Origin: a bacterium
Lineage (GTDB): Bacteria > Electryoneota > Electryoneia > Electryoneales > Electryoneaceae
DNA length: 64,000 nucleotides
Direction: 5' to 3'
Assembly: GCA_963669175.1 (NCBI GenBank)
Contig: OY769902.1
Location: forward strand, 1,664,001-1,728,000
Position numbers and translations under genes: made by a program. This document shows, piece after piece, positions 20,209 through 63,873 of the stretch (its first letter is position 1; every line of letters begins with the position of its first letter). The notes under the pieces are model-generated. The model worked only from the letters and a program-made list of their open reading frames with translations, had not been told where the DNA came from and ran no database searches.

Positions 20209-20212
<4 letters not shown>
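18035..20212 (+). CDS. mutA: Methylmalonyl-CoA mutase, small (beta) subunit
   Basis: [40 protein letters not shown]; lacks DxHxxG; ATGA overlap with the large subunit. Confidence 0.9.
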
Positions 20213-22380
<2,168 letters not shown>

Positions 22381-22386
22381 TCCTTT

Positions 22387-22760
22387 TGACTCACAGGATA
22401 ATAGGATAAAAGGATATCAAGGATGAACTGATGTAAAGCAGTAAAAAAAGTAAATAATGTAAAGAAGGCAAAGAAGGAAAGAAGGCAATAATGCTTTAGA
22501 AGGCAACAGCATACCATCATGGGTGCAGGATATCGGTTCTGCACCCTTTTTTTTGACTCACAGGATAACAGGATGCAAAGATATCAAGGAAGAACTGATG
22601 TAAAGCAGTAAAAGAAGTAAATAATGTAAAGAAGGCAAAGAAGGAAAGAAGGCAATAAAGCTTTAGAAGGCAACAGCATACCATCATGGGTGCAGGATTC
22701 CGGTTCTGCACCCTTTTTTTTTTGACTCACAGGATAACAGGATGCAAAGATATCAAGGAT
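22387..22760 (+). repeat. About 168-bp tandem duplication (2 units plus a partial third), each full unit ending in a terminator hairpin
   Basis: Units start TGACTCACAGGAT at 22387, 22554 and 22723; hairpin GGGTGCAG..CTGCACCC plus T-run; inverted copy of the unit start at 24553-24591. Confidence 0.9.
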
Positions 22761-23259
22761 GTGGTTTAATTAAGAATAATGTTGTTGTTTTCTGCAGCCT
22801 TTCACTTTAATTGTAGTTATAGTCGTTCCCGAAAGTCTTTACCGTTTCAGGTTGGTGGCAACAGCTTTCTGATACTGAACATCTTTCTTGTGAAAGGTCC
22901 GATTTTTCCCGATTGCACTCTTTCGAAAATTATTTGTATTAGCAGGCTTTAGCCTGCTCCTCTTAGACCCCCGGCTTTAGCCGGGGGAACAAGGACAACA
23001 ACGGATCGAGCGCCCTTCAGGGTGCTTTCCTGATCCTTTTGATTCGATGACGAAAAGCACGCTAAAGCGCGCTCATAGTTTTTGTTACTTCAATCCACCC
23101 GGCTAAAGCCGGGTGCTAAGCGGAGCCTGCTGAAGCAGGCTAATCGCTTTCGAATCAGCAATAACTTTCGAGTTCCTATGTTAAACGACAGGCGCATCAA
23201 GTCGTGTTGGAACTGCTATCTTAGCAGTATTCCATTTTTCCAACACAAGGAGAAGCGCC

Positions 23260-24321
23260 ATGTCGAAGAACCAAGTTATTGCAGCGGACCGTTCATTGTC
23301 TATAGGTCTGGATGTTGATTCGCAGACTTCTTTCGCCGTTGTGCTCGACACCCAGACTGGTGAAGTGCTCTTTGAGAATCGGATCAAGCATGACTCAGCC
23401 GCTTGGGAACGCTTCTTTGCCCGTTTTCCCAACTGCCGCATGTGGGCGTGTTATGAAGCGGGCCTCACCGGCTTTGGCCTCTGTCGTTACCTGATCGGCC
23501 AAGGTGTTGACTGCCAGATCGCGCCGCCCAGCCAAGTTCCCAAAGGGGCGCAAGCGAAGCAGCAGAAGACCGATCATCTGGATGCCCTTACCTTGGCCCA
23601 CATGTTCTGGACACCACCTCGTACCTGGGTACATGTCCCCACAGAACAGGAAGAGGCGGATCGTCAGTTGTCTCGCACCCGTGACCAGGTGATGAATGAT
23701 CGCGTTCGGGTCAAAAACCGAATCAAGAGTCTGCTATTGTTTCACGGTTTACAGTCACCGTTTCCGCCGCAACGCTATTGGACAAAGGAATACCGGCGCT
23801 GGTTGCGAACGTGTGATTGTCTGGCCGCGACACGGATAGCCATTGATGTTGCTCTCGATGAGCTGGAGGCCATTGAACAGCAACTCAAGGTGATCACCAA
23901 AGCGATCAAGGCGATGAATGCGTCCGCAACGTATCGGGACCGTACCCAGCGCCTGCGCCAGGTGAAGGGAGTGGGCGAGTTGACCGTGAACGCCTTCGTG
24001 ACCGAGATGTATCGTCCCGAACGCTTCGCATCCGGTAAGCAAGTCGGCGCACATCTTGGCTTGACGCCGTGTGAATGGTCAAGCGCCAACACACGCCATA
24101 TGGGACACATTACCCACTGGGGACCGTCCCATCTACGAAAACTATTGGTCGAAGCTGCGTGGCGTTGGGTGCAAAAAGATCCGTATGCAAAGAAGAAATA
24201 CGATGCGATCCATGCCGGGAAAACACGGAAAGTGGCGATCGTCGCCATGGCACGAAAACTAGCCGTGATACTGTGGGCCATGCTGGTCAAAGAACAAGAC
24301 TACAATCCTGCCTGCGTATAA
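23260..24321 (+). CDS. IS110-family DEDD transposase/recombinase
   Basis: GLDVD, YEAG, KTDHLDA (DEDD); VKGVG, GLTPCEWSS (catalytic Ser), LRKLLVEAAW, AIVAMARKLA. Confidence 0.95.
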   Translation: MSKNQVIAADRSLSIGLDVDSQTSFAVVLDTQTGEVLFENRIKHDSAAWERFFARFPNCRMWACYEAGLTGFGLCRYLIGQGVDCQIAPPSQVPKGAQAKQQKTDHLDALTLAHMFWTPPRTWVHVPTEQEEADRQLSRTRDQVMNDRVRVKNRIKSLLLFHGLQSPFPPQRYWTKEYRRWLRTCDCLAATRIAIDVALDELEAIEQQLKVITKAIKAMNASATYRDRTQRLRQVKGVGELTVNAFVTEMYRPERFASGKQVGAHLGLTPCEWSSANTRHMGHITHWGPSHLRKLLVEAAWRWVQKDPYAKKKYDAIHAGKTRKVAIVAMARKLAVILWAMLVKEQDYNPACV

Positions 24322-24541
24322 CCCCAGCACTGCTGGCAGGTAGGTAAAGCATAGATTGTGATTGAATCGTCCGATGCCATTGGGAACACGCGACCCTGGT
24401 AGTTATTCTGTTGCTTGACAACGATTCGAGTTTAGGGCGCCGCTGTTCCGTGCGAACAAAAAACTTGTGCCACGAGCACGAATAGCAGAACGGCACATGG
24501 GACGATACAAAGGCTCTTTACACCCTTGACTGTTTACATAG
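24322..24541 (+). ncRNA. Candidate bridge/seek RNA region of the IS110 element
   Basis: Long non-coding 3' end with stem potential (GCCGCTGTTCCGTGC...GCACGAATAGCAGAACGGC); function inferred from IS110/IS1111 biology. Confidence 0.5.
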
Positions 24542-24595
24542 CGGAACAACTATATCCTTTATATCCTTCTATCCTATTATCCTGTGAGTCATCTG

Positions 24596-26149
24596 TCAGG
24601 ACCTGCGGGCGTACTTGTTGGTCAACACCGCGATCATCAAGCCCAACGACATGAACCCCGCCACCGTCTCACAGAACACCGCGATCACCCCCGCATTACA
24701 CGCCGGATGAGTTGACCTCACGCCCAGGTTGGTGAAGATGTCAAACGAGATAAAGAAGTACTTCCAGAACCCGAGCAGTGTGTCTGGGAGCCTCTGGCCA
24801 GCCAGGTTGGGATCAACCAGGGTTTGCCCCGGTTCCATAACCAGTTGACTCAGGATGGGAATATGACTCAGGCAATCGACATACCAGTCCGGCATGAAGG
24901 TGAAGGGAGCATTCATAAAAATCCATGCGAACAATAAAATAATTCCAAGTCCCCAAAATGCCACCCGGGTCGCAGAATACCCGCAATTGGTAGTCAGGTT
25001 CCAGAACCAGTAGAATAGTGGTTGTTTCTGTTTGAAGGCCCGAAGAAACTGCTGGTCTTTGATGTAGCGGACAAGATCACCAGCTTCGGTTGTGTCGCAT
25101 TTATCAATGTCAACGCCCGTAAAATTTGTAAAAAACCAACGTTCCTGAAGTAATGGCTTCCACCATTCAATCGGAATCACATGAAATCGTTGCTTACGGG
25201 CTTTGAGCCACAATTTGCCTGAGAAATATATTGGGAAAAAATAGGTGGCTTGATCTGTATAAAGCTCTTGAGCAATCATATCACATCTGTGAACAAATGT
25301 TTGCAACCAGTCTATTTTCTTTAATAGTGAATACCACCAATCTCCCCAGCGTGGCACAAACCAGTTTTTTGCAAAAAGCGTGTTTTCTTGTTTTGAAGAG
25401 ATTTCTTCGTTCTCATTTTTCCGAATCTCACCAATTGTAGTAAAACTACAATTGGTGCGGAATAGAATTGCTTCCCACATCTTCGCTCCCTCGAGGTGCG
25501 CTTCCCTCATATCCGCTCCCTCGAGGTGCGCTTCCCTCATCTTCGCTCCTTCGAGGTTCGTCCAACTCATCTTCGCTCCATCGAGGTGCGCCCTGAACAT
25601 CTTCGCTCCCTCGAGGTGCGCCCTGAACATCTTCGCTCCCTCGAGGTGCGCTTCCCTCATATACGCACCCTCGAGGTGCGCCCACCTCATATCCGCTCCC
25701 TCGAGGTGCGCTTCCCCCATATACGCACCCTCGAGGTGCGCCCCACTCATATACGCTCCCTCGAGGTGTGCCCCACTCATAGAAGCTCCCTCGAGGTGCG
25801 CTTCCCTCATATACGCACCCTCGAGGTGCGCAAAGGGTATAGCTATCTTATCCAGCTTTCTTTTAGTCCAATCAATTCCCTTCAGGTCTAAAACGGGTAC
25901 CAAAAAGCTGTTGCGGTTCCAAGGATATTGATTTGTTCCTTTTGAATGGTCCACATCAAATTCATCACGCCACTTTTTCCCATTCAACAAGCAGTTGACC
26001 TTCCACATCCGTTTGGCGGCTTCTTCGTCGGTCTTAGCAGGTTCGTTTCCCTTGAGAATTCTGGCAATTTGGTCAGGCAGGTGTTCTGTATGCGGTTGTG
26101 TCCAGCGGTCTTGCCATTGTTGGATCTGTTTATCGGTTGGGACTGGCAT
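24596..26149 (-). CDS. Pentapeptide-repeat membrane protein with C-terminal two-TM K-channel-like domain
   Basis: 12 x AHLEGAxMxx; C-terminal TM-pore-TM (YFFISFDIFTNLGVRSTHP, ETVAGFMSLGLMIAVL). Confidence 0.85.
   Translation of the reverse strand: MPVPTDKQIQQWQDRWTQPHTEHLPDQIARILKGNEPAKTDEEAAKRMWKVNCLLNGKKWRDEFDVDHSKGTNQYPWNRNSFLVPVLDLKGIDWTKRKLDKIAIPFAHLEGAYMREAHLEGASMSGAHLEGAYMSGAHLEGAYMGEAHLEGADMRWAHLEGAYMREAHLEGAKMFRAHLEGAKMFRAHLDGAKMSWTNLEGAKMREAHLEGADMREAHLEGAKMWEAILFRTNCSFTTIGEIRKNENEEISSKQENTLFAKNWFVPRWGDWWYSLLKKIDWLQTFVHRCDMIAQELYTDQATYFFPIYFSGKLWLKARKQRFHVIPIEWWKPLLQERWFFTNFTGVDIDKCDTTEAGDLVRYIKDQQFLRAFKQKQPLFYWFWNLTTNCGYSATRVAFWGLGIILLFAWIFMNAPFTFMPDWYVDCLSHIPILSQLVMEPGQTLVDPNLAGQRLPDTLLGFWKYFFISFDIFTNLGVRSTHPACNAGVIAVFCETVAGFMSLGLMIAVLTNKYARRS
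25471..25830 (-). repeat. Coding 30-bp tandem repeat x12
   Basis: Near-identical CTTCCCTCATxxxCGCTCCCTCGAGGTGCG units in frame. Confidence 0.95.
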
Positions 26150-63019: not shown

Positions 63020-63440
63020 TGGTAGTTGTTCCAGAAAGTCATTGCCGTTTAAGTTTAAGGTTGGTGATAGCTTCTTTCTGGCACGATACGGTTATCTCGT
63101 ATAGGGTCCGATTCTTTTTGATTGCCTTCTTTCAGCTATCGCGTATGGAGTCCGATTCCTTCTGATTGCCTTCTCTGGAAATATGTAATTAGTTGTTTTA
63201 GCAGGCTTTAGCCTGCTCTTCTTAGCCCCCGGCTTTAGCCGGGGGAGCAGGGATAATAACGATATCGAGCGCCCTTCAGGGTGCTTTTCTGATTCGTATT
63301 GATTCTATCATGAGAAAGCACGCTAAAGCGCGCTCATAGCTTTTGTAATACCCATCCACCCGGCTAAAGCCGGGTGCTAAGAGGAGCCTGCTGAAGCAGG
63401 CTAATTGCTTTCGAATCAGCAAATGTTTTGGGAACTACCA
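63020..63440. mobile_element. Uninterrupted MITE copy containing REP core copy 3 (63198-63404)
   Basis: Ends TGGTAGTTGTTCCAGAAAGT and GGGAACTACCA; collinear with 22818-23170; internal about 45-bp duplication at 63085-63178. Confidence 0.75.
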
Positions 63441-63543
63441 AGGCACAAAACCTGTAGTTCCACCCCTTCGGGGTGGAGAGATTGTTGCCCTATGTTTTCC
63501 CGGGGCTTACGACCCGCGCTATTCATGTTTCGCCCCTTCGGGG

Positions 63544-63825
63544 CTCTGCAATCTGCCTATTCTCGAGCGAATGTGACAGCGTTTTCTAGAGATTATTTCG
63601 TTTGCCTGTTCTAGAGCGTAAATGACAGCACCCCTTCGGGCTCTGCAATCTGCCTATTTTCGAGCGAATGTGACAACGCCTCCTCAGGATGCGTTTGTTT
63701 CCTTTGCTCGAATATAAATAGCATTATTTCCTCACGACTATTTCGTTTGGCTATTTTCGAGCGTAAATGACAGCGTTCCCTCGAGACTATATTGTTGCCT
63801 GTTCTTGATCAAAATGACAGCGTCT
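63544..63825. repeat. Degenerate tandem repeat, about 48-bp period (TGCCTATTCTCGAGCG..ATGACAGC)
   Basis: About six diverged copies visible by eye. Confidence 0.6.
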
Positions 63826-63873
63826 ATGTTGCTGCCTGATTTCAATTCTTTATTCTTAATTTTTAATTCTTAA

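Follow-up and report, generated by a model that had tools for sequence, protein, structure and literature searches.

The insertion sequence and its boundaries

The locus lies in a window of 64,000 nucleotides (the whole stretch of DNA that was analysed) and consists of a small repeat, here called MITE-a, whose right terminal inverted repeat is interrupted by an insertion sequence (IS) (Table 1). An IS110 element in that right repeat had been proposed by the sequence-only reading of this DNA, and the transposase frame bears this out, with matches to PF01548 (E = 5.3e-18, residues 15–160) and PF02371 (E = 8e-20, residues 230–314) that both exceed the curated cut-offs. The strings it had quoted, the left end of the repeat (22818–22836) and GAATCAGCAA-N8-GGAAC at 63413–63435, are likewise present. 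The transposases of IS621 and ISCro4 in the PDB match the IS transposase with the catalytic serine aligned, the counterpart in ISCro4 (9t56, E = 3e-9) being the serine of its SG pair. The C-terminal motif reads GLTPCEWSSA, a variant in which the residue after the catalytic serine is A, not G; the available text of PMC11187229 gives the motif of IS1111 transposases, within which the catalytic serine lies, as GL-P----S(T)G.

Table 1. Features of the nested locus and of its uninterrupted relative in the window
Position	Strand	Feature	Basis or remark
22384..22765	+	Three direct copies of a 37-nt motif with four phased AGGAT (22384–22425, 22551–22590, 22720–22765)	Outside the nested element
22818..22819	.	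TA at left end of MITE-a, possible target duplication	Sequence
22820..22937	+	MITE-a left arm; 10–13 genome copies	19-nt terminal inverted repeat = 22818–22836, TA included
22938..23142	.	Hairpin core, six short palindromes as three mirrored pairs; about 50–83 genome copies	
23143..23170	+	MITE-a right arm to the insertion point	Final bases ..CTTTCG = left target flank
23171..24542	+	IS assigned to the IS1111 group (IS110 family), 1372 bp, left AG core (23171–23172) counted	One of 12 copies
23176..23186	+	Left subterminal inverted repeat CTATGTTAAAC; TATGTT (23178–23183), would-be -10 of circle-junction promoter	Sequence
23260..24321	+	Transposase gene, 353 aa, DEDD_Tnp_IS110 + Transposase_20	Domains; frame intact in 12/12 copies
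24390..24440	+	Predicted target-binding module of a seekRNA/bridge RNA	Closing stem GCG-A-CCCUGG / UUAGGG-CGC, 7x7 internal loop, top hairpin 24410–24422
24398..24409	+	Putative T guide	24400–24409 (UAGUUAUUCU) exactly complementary to AG + AATAACTA; invariant in 12/12 copies
24425..24430	+	Putative B guide UUCGAG	Equals left flank TTCG + core AG; invariant in 12/12 copies
24481..24488	+	AAUAGCAG, candidate donor-end guide	Equals right IS end + core; kept in 6/6 relatives
24526..24541	+	TTGACT (24526–24531), would-be -35, then right subterminal inverted repeat GTTTACATAG (24532–24541)	Sequence
24543..24554	+	Target core GG (24543–24544), last 8 bases of MITE-a right repeat AACAACTA (24545–24552), flanking TA (24553–24554)	
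24554..24591	-	Inverted AGGAT copy	Begins 4 nt past the stop of gene 24596–26149 (-)
63190..63440	+	Diverged uninterrupted MITE-a relative	Right end ..TTTTG GG AACTACC.., three G like other empty sites

We assign the element to the IS1111 group on the strength of its domains, end repeats, site specificity and the position of its non-coding region (NCR), that is, of subterminal repeats together with a putative guide RNA region 3' of the gene. By eye, CTATGTTAAAC pairs as an inverted repeat with GTTTACATAG with a one-base gap, and L024, one of the relatives described below, has a similarly gapped subterminal repeat in different letters. The extensions beyond these repeats, counted by eye from ATGT, are 7 on the left (AGTTCCT) and 3 on the right (AGC), and the available text of PMC11187229 gives 7 and 3 for IS1111 elements. 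When the IS ends are joined in silico they read TTGACT, 17 nt, TATGTT, by eye a predicted promoter of the circle junction. The non-coding DNA amounts to 221 nt 3' of the gene (24322–24542) as against 89 nt 5' of it (23171–23259).

The boundaries were fixed by uninterrupted targets. About 68 ends of a second repeat family, MITE-b, read ..AATCG AG AAC.. without interruption and 7 read ..AATCG AG followed by the IS, and the element therefore runs from AG to AGC, after which the target resumes with its own core. Empty sites hold the 2-nt core on both sides and nothing further. Insertion is specific for site and orientation, and the shared 2-nt core is the sole duplication. This core is AG, or GG at MITE-a targets, where several uninterrupted ends read TTCG GG AAC; at the GG-core targets, which differ from the AG of the donor, the donor core stands at the left junction and the target core at the right in 4/4 cases. 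The sequence-only reading had assumed a CG core and an insertion of 1373 bp (23171–24543); since the core is AG or GG, its excision is one base too long, and its cut needs a one-base gap. Once the actual 1372 bp are taken out, the right end agrees ungapped with the left end, reverse-complemented, in 18 of 19 bases, in line with its claim that the one end is nearly the reverse complement of the other.

One could instead extend the IS to take in the 11 conserved bases on its right (GAAYARCTATA), leaving the left flank alone as target, given that the right flank is conserved at 12/12 sites and that an exact-string search for CGGAACAACTATA with at most one mismatch returned no empty MITE site among 17 matches. 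That search, however, used the one-base-short junction of the earlier reading; with the correct junction, the 68 MITE-b ends and several MITE-a ends hold these bases contiguous with the repeat. The bases also mirror the left repeat and differ between copies, whereas the IS body does not. We give this longer element almost no credence, and the empty sites refute it.

Contigs from other sequencing runs were also aligned to the locus. Those of run X4, from another study, gave zero depth over the IS body, and 10 records pass directly from 23170 to GGAACAACTATA; they were aligned at 88% likeness and may derive from other MITE-a copies of related organisms. Contigs of run X3 (a small share) contained fragments of the IS only. 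None of the contigs aligned spanned the whole stretch, and no circle junction was listed among them, although contigs would not be expected to show one. It is possible that runs X1 and X2 come from the source sample itself.

The host repeats and their surroundings

MITE-a comprises 22820–23170 and 24543–24552, about 361 bp in all, and is overlapped by frames of just 57 and 78 codons. Its left arm has 12 matches in the genome, the window's own among them; the terminal inverted repeats are the same on other copies, and a 1248-bp variant has no long open frame either. Both the window's MITE-a and genome copy 3525281 have TA on either side, and one variant has CA at the left. The six-hairpin core described earlier is there as six short palindromes: the DNA fold of 22930–23150 reaches -62.3 kcal/mol compared with -31.4 for shuffles (z = -8.1), and in the minimum free energy structure the two outer palindromes form local hairpins while the four inner ones are joined in one long mirrored stem. 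The core (22938–23142) is REP-like in the sense of short extragenic palindromes present in many copies. MITE-b is a non-coding, TA-flanked repeat of about 113–190 bp with roughly 70–90 ends in the genome, TA following most of its ends and standing at 7 of 8 left ends. Parts of the hairpin core were present in 3 of 16 relatives searched, and MITE-b in none of the 16.

A search of this genome found no autonomous element bearing the MITE terminal repeats (ending TAGCTGTTCTCGA), and inverted pairs of the tip motif 0.6–4 kb apart, among which a parent transposase was sought, were non-coding variants or chance pairs only. Five IS630-like copies were discarded as parents, as their ends differ from the tip, and so were Y1 transposases (PF01797), none of whose 10 matches in the genome is flanked by the tip motif.

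The AGGAT repeats had been taken for the outermost layer of the nest, and this we do not uphold. Of the 37-nt motif the genome has 23 copies, most of them standing alone; 14 of the 23 lie just 3' of an open frame of at least 150 codons reading towards them (in 200 trials with random positions the mean was 3.1 and the highest count 8). In the window the first direct copy begins 3 nt past the stop of the upstream gene, the direct copies are separated by two tandem units of about 168 bp, each with a terminator-like hairpin and a T run, and MITE-a is placed at the TA at the end of the inverted copy. The inverted AGGAT pair belongs to two convergent genes and not to an outer mobile layer.

Landing sites and the non-coding region of the IS

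The genome holds 12 copies of the IS, 99.27–100% identical and with identical ends: 3 in MITE-a, 7 in MITE-b at the same position within the repeat end, and 2 in unique intergenic DNA, where the short target motif is present too. All 12 sites read TCG/CAG-RG-AAY..CTAT, the IS has a single orientation relative to the motif in 12/12 copies, and at 11 of the 12 no open frame of more than 150 codons crosses the insertion point. The motif, TCG-(A/G)G-AA(C/T)A(A/G)CTAT, is the outermost stretch of the terminal inverted repeat of both MITE families, and most insertions therefore lie 10 bases inside a MITE tip; the sites are intergenic, and each MITE-tip insertion splits the terminal repeat. The unit recognised, as judged from these sites, appears to be a motif of about 14–16 nt common to the tips of two MITE families and not MITE-a as such. 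The earlier suggestion of an IS aimed at a multicopy MITE end is borne out by 10 of 12 copies and by segments of the NCR that match the site, and has to be amended in that the motif, not this MITE, is the target and that the two remaining copies lie in unique DNA. Its expectation of uniform boundaries is confirmed in 12/12 copies; that of uniform flanks is not, the flanks being of three kinds, all with the target motif.

A repeat stands on the left of 10 of the 12 copies, and a MITE-like hitch-hiker, MITEPpu9, has been reported for ISPpu9 in the available text of PMC12288879, so that the IS and the adjoining repeat might be imagined as a composite or hitch-hiking unit whose repeats are IS-derived. 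The IS-adjacent MITE-b units, however, are only 84–98% identical to the query MITE-b copy, whereas identity among the IS copies is 99.27% or more; 68 MITE-b ends and two IS copies occur each without the other partner, the repeat ends (..CTATA) are unlike the IS ends, and the last 10 bases of the repeat resume on the right of the IS. Such a unit is very improbable, and already contradicted.

We ranked 14-mers as potential targets by an ad hoc score, after taking the 12 copies out of the genome in silico. An occupied site heads the ranking, and by this score 2 of 4 sites are occupied at 13 or above, 4 of 14 at 12.5 or above and 7 of 73 at 12 or above. The other 66 of the 73 are empty, many of them scoring as high as occupied sites or higher, and occupancy is therefore not predicted by pairing alone.

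The NCR carries two segments that correspond to the target. The 10 nt at 24400–24409 are an exact complement of the core and right flank seen at sister copies, a length reached by 0/5000 NCR shuffles. With each of the 12 sites the T segment of 12 nt can form 7–10 Watson-Crick and 1–3 G:U pairs, and the B segment is matched at 4–5 of its 6 positions; the two overlap on AG. At the commonest occupied targets (8/12 sites) a C lies opposite an A of the T guide, the target reading AAC instead of AAT. In the minimum free energy fold of the NCR the T and B segments face each other across one internal loop, and this order, T 5' of B, is the one described for IS1111 seekRNAs in the available text of PMC11187229. 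The single-sequence fold is no better than those of shuffles (z = -0.39 and -0.40); RNAalifold on six elements predicts the closing stem around T and B, with 7 of 16 predicted pairs maintained via changes on both sides. An Rfam scan of 22000–25000 recovered no bridge-RNA family; its only two matches fell below threshold and are put down to chance. Candidates for the other donor guide, which would pair with the left IS end, were compared by eye among the relatives and gave no consistent co-variation, and a scan for pairing between the NCR and either target or donor that admitted G:U pairs was dropped as too noisy.

The same two NCR positions vary with the target in six relatives with five other targets, whose transposases are 48–53% identical to that of the IS. 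The position homologous to T complements the relative's own core and right flank over 11 nt in L024 (0/5000 shuffles), 8 nt in L025 (13/5000), and 7 nt in both L026 (73/5000) and L027 (48/5000), the last two having a common target and therefore not being independent. In L021 the own flank is matched with one mismatch; in L002 the perfect anchored match is just 5 nt and lies elsewhere, and the homologous match, found by eye, requires two G:U pairs. The relatives' own left flank plus AG, 4–6 nt, is found 15–22 nt downstream of the T position, and the insertions of L024, L026 and L027 lie at the foot of REP-like hairpins. No relative above 53% protein identity was found in the genome collection (3 loci), the metagenome collection (57 loci) or 40 related genomes, and a genome of the same genus (92% complete, 390 contigs) gave no match to the IS.

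From this complementarity and its co-variation with the target we consider it highly probable that the DEDD transposase of the IS is directed by a small RNA derived from the NCR. By analogy with other IS1111/IS110 elements, the 221-nt region would give rise to a small RNA that binds the transposase and exposes two short segments, one to each side of an internal loop; T would complement the top strand over the AG core and 8–10 bases rightward, B would be identical to the top strand over 4 bases leftward and the core (TTCG AG), and the RNA would guide recombination via a circular intermediate. Ten of the 12 copies would then lie in MITE tips because a short RNA encoded by the IS matches the tip. 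Were the protein alone to recognise the tip, with the complementarity incidental or serving end recognition only, the short B match (4–6 nt), the tolerance of a C:A mismatch and G:U pairs at occupied targets, and the many well-matching sites left empty would all be unsurprising. The T segment, however, varies with the target in relatives whose transposases and IS ends remain alike, a closing stem with compensatory changes encloses the variable segments, and the two insertions in unique DNA have only the short motif in common with the others; in other IS1111 members the RNA is essential by experiment, according to the available text of PMC11187229. Recognition by protein alone is in our judgement improbable.

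Beyond an RNA-directed transposase, we offer tentatively, and with more doubt than conviction, the idea that an invariant, wobble-tolerant guide pair is tuned to the 14–16-nt tip of two MITE families. The IS would then be a parasite of mobile elements that splits the repeat 10 bases from its tip and probably immobilises it, and the 4/4 core pattern could record a one-sided strand exchange in IS1111-type recombination, for example if one strand pair were exchanged and replication followed, or if the crossover took place 5' of the core's first base.

Comparison with known systems

Targeting of REP sequences and of the inverted repeats of other transposons by the IS110/IS1111 family is already in print, and the picture of how the family works is unchanged by the present case. 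IS621 also inserts into REP sequences. A limited literature search did not find a described insertion of an IS110-family element into a MITE end, the ISPpu9 paper alone being relevant. What the locus adds is a readable natural case of probably RNA-guided target choice, the studied IS1111/IS110 elements coming from other phyla, and a resource of 12 intact copies, dozens of empty sites, putative guides readable from sequence and relatives whose guides are re-aimed at other repeats. It suggests that an IS can spread without harm to genes through the ends of older selfish repeats, and its natural record of tolerated mismatches (the C:A mismatch, G:U pairs and an A/G core) may be useful for the engineering of bridge or seek recombinases.

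A title in the reference list of PMC11208160 describes an IS1111-group element whose insertions fall within a terminal inverted repeat that belongs to a different transposable element. As far as that source goes, the two elements are alike in their subterminal inverted repeats and in using one position and one orientation within the terminal repeat of another element. They differ in that its host is a large resistance transposon, whereas here the hosts are small non-coding chromosomal MITEs of an environmental bacterium, and two unrelated-looking repeat families are targeted via a common tip of 14–16 nt; the transposases are taken to be distant, with no direct comparison behind this. IS1383, known by title (Muller et al. 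2001, via PMC11208160), integrates in Pseudomonas putida H into the IS1384 inverted repeats, and is likewise an IS110-family element that uses the inverted repeat of another mobile element as its specific target; its target is an autonomous IS, whereas here it is a non-autonomous repeat without an identified transposase.

ISPa11, ISPpu9 and ISPpu10 (IS110/IS1111) insert into REP sequences according to the available texts of PMC11187229 and PMC12288879. Like them, the present IS uses a multicopy intergenic palindromic repeat as target, with position and orientation fixed, and as in ISPpu9 an AG dinucleotide stands at the IS termini. Unlike in these three, as those texts describe them, the motif used in the window forms the outermost part of a terminal inverted repeat, and the hairpin core of MITE-a is left intact. 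With the seekRNAs of ISEc11, ISKpn4 and ISPa11 (PMC11187229) and the bridge RNA of IS621 (PMC11208160), both taken from the available texts, the putative RNA would share an NCR 3' of the transposase gene, a segment complementary to the top strand 5' of one complementary to the bottom strand, and an overlap of the two at the insertion point, and in both settings natural re-direction is visible as co-variation of guide and target among relatives. Set against those systems, the one described here is known from sequence alone, its donor-binding part is half identified (AAUAGCAG), and its closest transposases, 48–53% identical, come from metagenomes.

Boundaries and core of the insertion sequence

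A BLAST search with the interval proposed by the sequence-only reading found 12 copies of the insertion sequence (IS) in the 5.45-Mb genome, which are 99.27-100% identical, have the same ends throughout and all carry an intact transposase ORF. The transposase contains both IS110-family domains of Pfam (PF01548, E = 5.3e-18; PF02371, E = 8e-20) and hits the IS621 and ISCro4 transposases of known structure (E = 3e-9); its catalytic serine could be aligned with theirs (motif GLTP....SA). The genome also has two copies (344372-345346, +; 1259236-1260210, -) of another IS110-family transposase, distantly related to this one (26% identity). At the locus itself, the pentapeptide-repeat gene encodes a protein in which a long series of pentapeptide-like units, AHLEGA(K/D/Y)M.., precedes a hydrophobic C-terminal part, and the IS-bearing repeat (MITE-a) adjoins the stop of this gene, just beyond it.

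Features of the locus (window coordinates)
Feature	Position	Strand	Remark
Methylmalonyl-CoA-mutase-like gene	20209-22380	+	left neighbour of the intergenic gap
AGGAT motif, three direct copies	22384-22765	+	after the mutase-like gene
MITE-a	22820-23170 and 24543-24552		about 361 bp, 19-nt terminal repeats, TA on each side
IS	23171-24542		
Transposase ORF, 353 codons	23260-24321	+	inside the gap between the mutase-like and pentapeptide-repeat genes
T segment	24398-24409		predicted guide
B segment	24425-24430		predicted guide
Target's own core	24543-24544		
AGGAT motif, inverted copy	24554-24591	-	after the convergent pentapeptide-repeat gene; MITE-a at a TA there
Pentapeptide-repeat gene, 517 codons	24596-26149	-	right neighbour of the gap, convergent

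The left flank is the right arm of MITE-a (..CAGCAATARCTTTCG) in 3 of the 12 copies, a second repeat family, MITE-b (..GACGGAATAAAATCG), in 7 and unique DNA in 2, and the right flank is (A/G)G-AAYARCTAT-like in all of them. The genome was first searched with the junction as the sequence-only reading had rejoined it, and no empty site matched; the right-hand bases could thus have been part of the IS, a reading that the empty ends of MITE-b ruled out. Among the 91 MITE-b copies with an alignment extending into the last 15 bases, 7 enter the IS and most others continue as ..AATCG AG AACAGCTATA; a junction-spanning 17-mer (two or fewer mismatches) likewise gave 68 uninterrupted and 7 interrupted ends. 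Uninterrupted MITE-a ends elsewhere in the genome read TTCG GG AAC, and the diverged copy at 63413-63435 that had been named as the empty counterpart has three G too. The site structure is flank-AG-TTCC...CATAGC-AG-flank, and the comparison of empty with filled sites therefore gives an IS of 1372 bp, one copy of the two-base core included. The same comparison replaces the CG core proposed earlier with AG or GG. The proposed excision of 1373 bp was one base too long: once 1372 bp are taken out, the right end of MITE-a agrees with the reverse complement of 22818-22836 in an ungapped match at 18 of 19 positions, whereas the earlier cut needs a one-base gap. At the 4 GG-core targets the donor's AG always stands at the left junction and the target's GG at the right one, and at the 8 AG-core targets both junctions read AG. 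This consistent asymmetry may bear on how strand exchange is ordered or resolved.

We also compared the window with contigs from sequencing runs. In X1 and X2, which may represent the source sample, a separate unitig is made up of the IS (23170-24542); its depth of 287-398, versus 18-34 in the flanks, fits about a dozen copies. Contigs of X4, a run from another study, have a depth of 0 on the IS body, and 10 records pass from 23170 straight to GGAACAACTATA; since the likeness at placement was 88%, these records may come from related organisms and represent other copies of MITE-a.

Repeats around the insertions

The 205-bp core of MITE-a consists of six short palindromes in three mirrored pairs. 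Folded as DNA it gave z = -8.1, and in its minimum free energy (MFE) fold the outer two palindromes are hairpins and the inner four are joined in one long stem. The genome holds 50-83 copies of this core versus 10-13 of the left arm and 17-35 of the right arm, and parts of the core recur in three further genera of this family. A 1248-bp variant (genome 847298-848545; L081, 298-1547) is non-coding with no long ORF, and its near-perfect terminal repeats and long series of nested inverted repeats make it a giant hairpin element. MITE-b has 35-nt-like terminal repeats in its ~190-bp form, most copies being the 113-bp right part, and was absent from the matches in the 16 relatives searched. The TA flanks may hint at a TA-duplicating transposase. 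No transposase with MITE-a or MITE-b tips was found in the genome, and "MITE" is therefore a structural label here; the Y1 transposase family had 10 matches in the genome. An IS630-like element (DDE_3, ~1.17 kb) with CTAG-flanked ends GTGCCAGTTTAGATCAAG occurs in five identical copies (L088-L092; genome 3.63, 4.01, 4.46, 4.49 and 5.00 Mb), and GAGTCGTTTTTGAAAGT, which lies ~45 nt in from the left end of this element, is similar to the MITE-a tip AGTCGTTCCCGAAAGT, a likeness that may be chance. At 63440-63830, 3' of the second MITE-a-like copy, about six imperfect repeats ..CTATTTTCGAGCG(A/T)AAATGACAGC.. are interspersed with CCCCTTCGGGG hairpins.

The AGGAT inverted repeats, previously taken as the outermost layer of the nest, are not terminal repeats of an enclosing element; the motif tends to trail gene ends. 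Its 37-nt unit (GACTCACAGGATAA.AGGAT...AAGGATAA, four AGGAT ~9-10 nt apart) has 23 genome copies, mostly single, of which 14 lie just 3' of an open frame of at least 150 codons reading towards them, several 3-20 nt past the stop, versus 3.1 on average and never more than 8 when random positions were drawn in 200 trials. Many genes have the motif immediately behind their stop codon or terminator, facing away from the gene; on the left, a ~168-bp tandem duplication has made three copies of it and repeated a terminator-like hairpin as well. The motif has the look of a protein-binding array or else of a 3'-end signal.

Predicted guide RNA and its co-variation in relatives

Within the non-coding region 3' of the transposase gene (NCR), positions 24400-24409 (UAGUUAUUCU) are the exact complement of AG AATAACTA; two sister copies have this core and right flank, and a third has the flank next to a GG core. 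The B segment, UUCGAG, has the same sequence as the left flank (TTCG) followed by the core (AG). In the MFE fold of the NCR the T and B segments face each other across a 7x7 internal loop, with GCG-A-CCCUGG / UUAGGG-CGC as its closing stem and a small hairpin on top; the fold energy was no better than that of shuffles. None of the 12 copies differs in either segment, and the NCR varies only at position 24465. Their order agrees with that described for IS1111 seekRNAs in PMC11187229, namely the top-strand complement followed by the bottom-strand complement, overlapping on the core.

The decisive support for reading these segments as putative guides is co-variation in relatives. The nearest transposases found are 48-53% identical, and six relative loci (L002, L021 and L024-L027) have the same ends and AG/GG core as the IS, conserve ACGAAUAGCAG in their NCRs and sit in five other targets. 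ACGAAUAGCAG equals the right IS end plus the core and is likely a donor guide. The NCR position homologous to T is the complement of each relative's own core and right flank, to a graded extent: the anchored complement is 10 nt in the window and 11 nt in L024 (each reached by 0 of 5000 NCR shuffles), 8 nt in L025 (13 of 5000), and 7 nt in both L026 (73 of 5000) and L027 (48 of 5000), which share a common target and so are not independent. Two cases are weaker, L021, nearly the same element as L025, matching its own flank with one mismatch and L002 requiring two G:U pairs (by eye). A segment 15-22 nt further downstream in each relative's NCR matches its own left flank plus AG over 4-6 nt. RNAalifold on 6 elements predicted a closing stem around the variable segments, with 7 of 16 predicted pairs kept despite changes on both sides.

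The NCRs of four relatives also contain an extra ~70-nt perfect hairpin (CCACATTCCCACAC...GTGTGGAAATGTGGA; L024 1733-1850, L026 1759-1880, L025 and L021 ~290-380 nt past the stop). Relative to the predicted guide module its placement varies, which would fit the insertion of a small hairpin element into the IS.

Site choice and comparison with known systems

At the 12 sites, pairing with the 12-nt T segment comprises 7-10 Watson-Crick and 1-3 G:U pairs, and the B segment matches at 4-5 of 6 positions; 8 sites have C in place of the guide-preferred T. All 12 copies were then excised in silico and every 14-mer was scored by an ad hoc rule. The top-scoring single site is an occupied one, and the occupied fraction on this score is 2/4 at 13 or above, 4/14 at 12.5 or above, 7/73 at 12 or above and 12/2385 at 10.5 or above; pairing therefore enriches strongly and is not the sole determinant. 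The earlier proposal that the IS targets MITE ends holds for 10 of 12 copies, but it is a short sequence that is recognised and not the MITE as such, as shown by the two non-repeat insertions, both of which are in unique DNA carrying the motif. These two sites have no spanning open frame of at least 80 codons. Spanning stop-to-stop frames at the other ten are 150 codons or fewer, with one exception of 384 codons, which starts inside MITE-b, so that its true start is probably downstream of the insertion site.

The IS1111 group as described by Siddiquee et al. (PMC11187229) has subterminal inverted repeats, short terminal extensions, a long NCR 3' of the gene, and site- and orientation-specific insertion without real duplication, and all four of these listed features are present in the IS. 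The subterminal inverted repeats are CTATGTTAAAC and GTTTACATAG, with a one-base gap, and the non-coding DNA amounts to 221 nt 3' of the gene versus 89 nt 5'. Joining the ends in silico creates TTGACT, 17 nt and TATGTT, which resembles the junction promoter described for the family and is here predicted from sequence, by eye.

A limited literature search found no described MITE-end target, although one may still be in print. Among the published cases, REP sequences are documented targets of ISPa11, ISPpu9 and ISPpu10 (PMC11187229; PMC12288879), and PMC11208160 cites insertion of IS4321/IS5075 in the inverted repeats carried by Tn21-family transposons and of IS1383 in those of IS1384. The IS is an example of an element living on the tips of older selfish repeats, and its use lies in letting guide-target pairing, mismatches included, be read off a natural case. 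RNA-guided target choice by IS110/IS1111 elements was shown in 2024 (PMC11187229; PMC11208160), and the IS adds to this already described kind of element.
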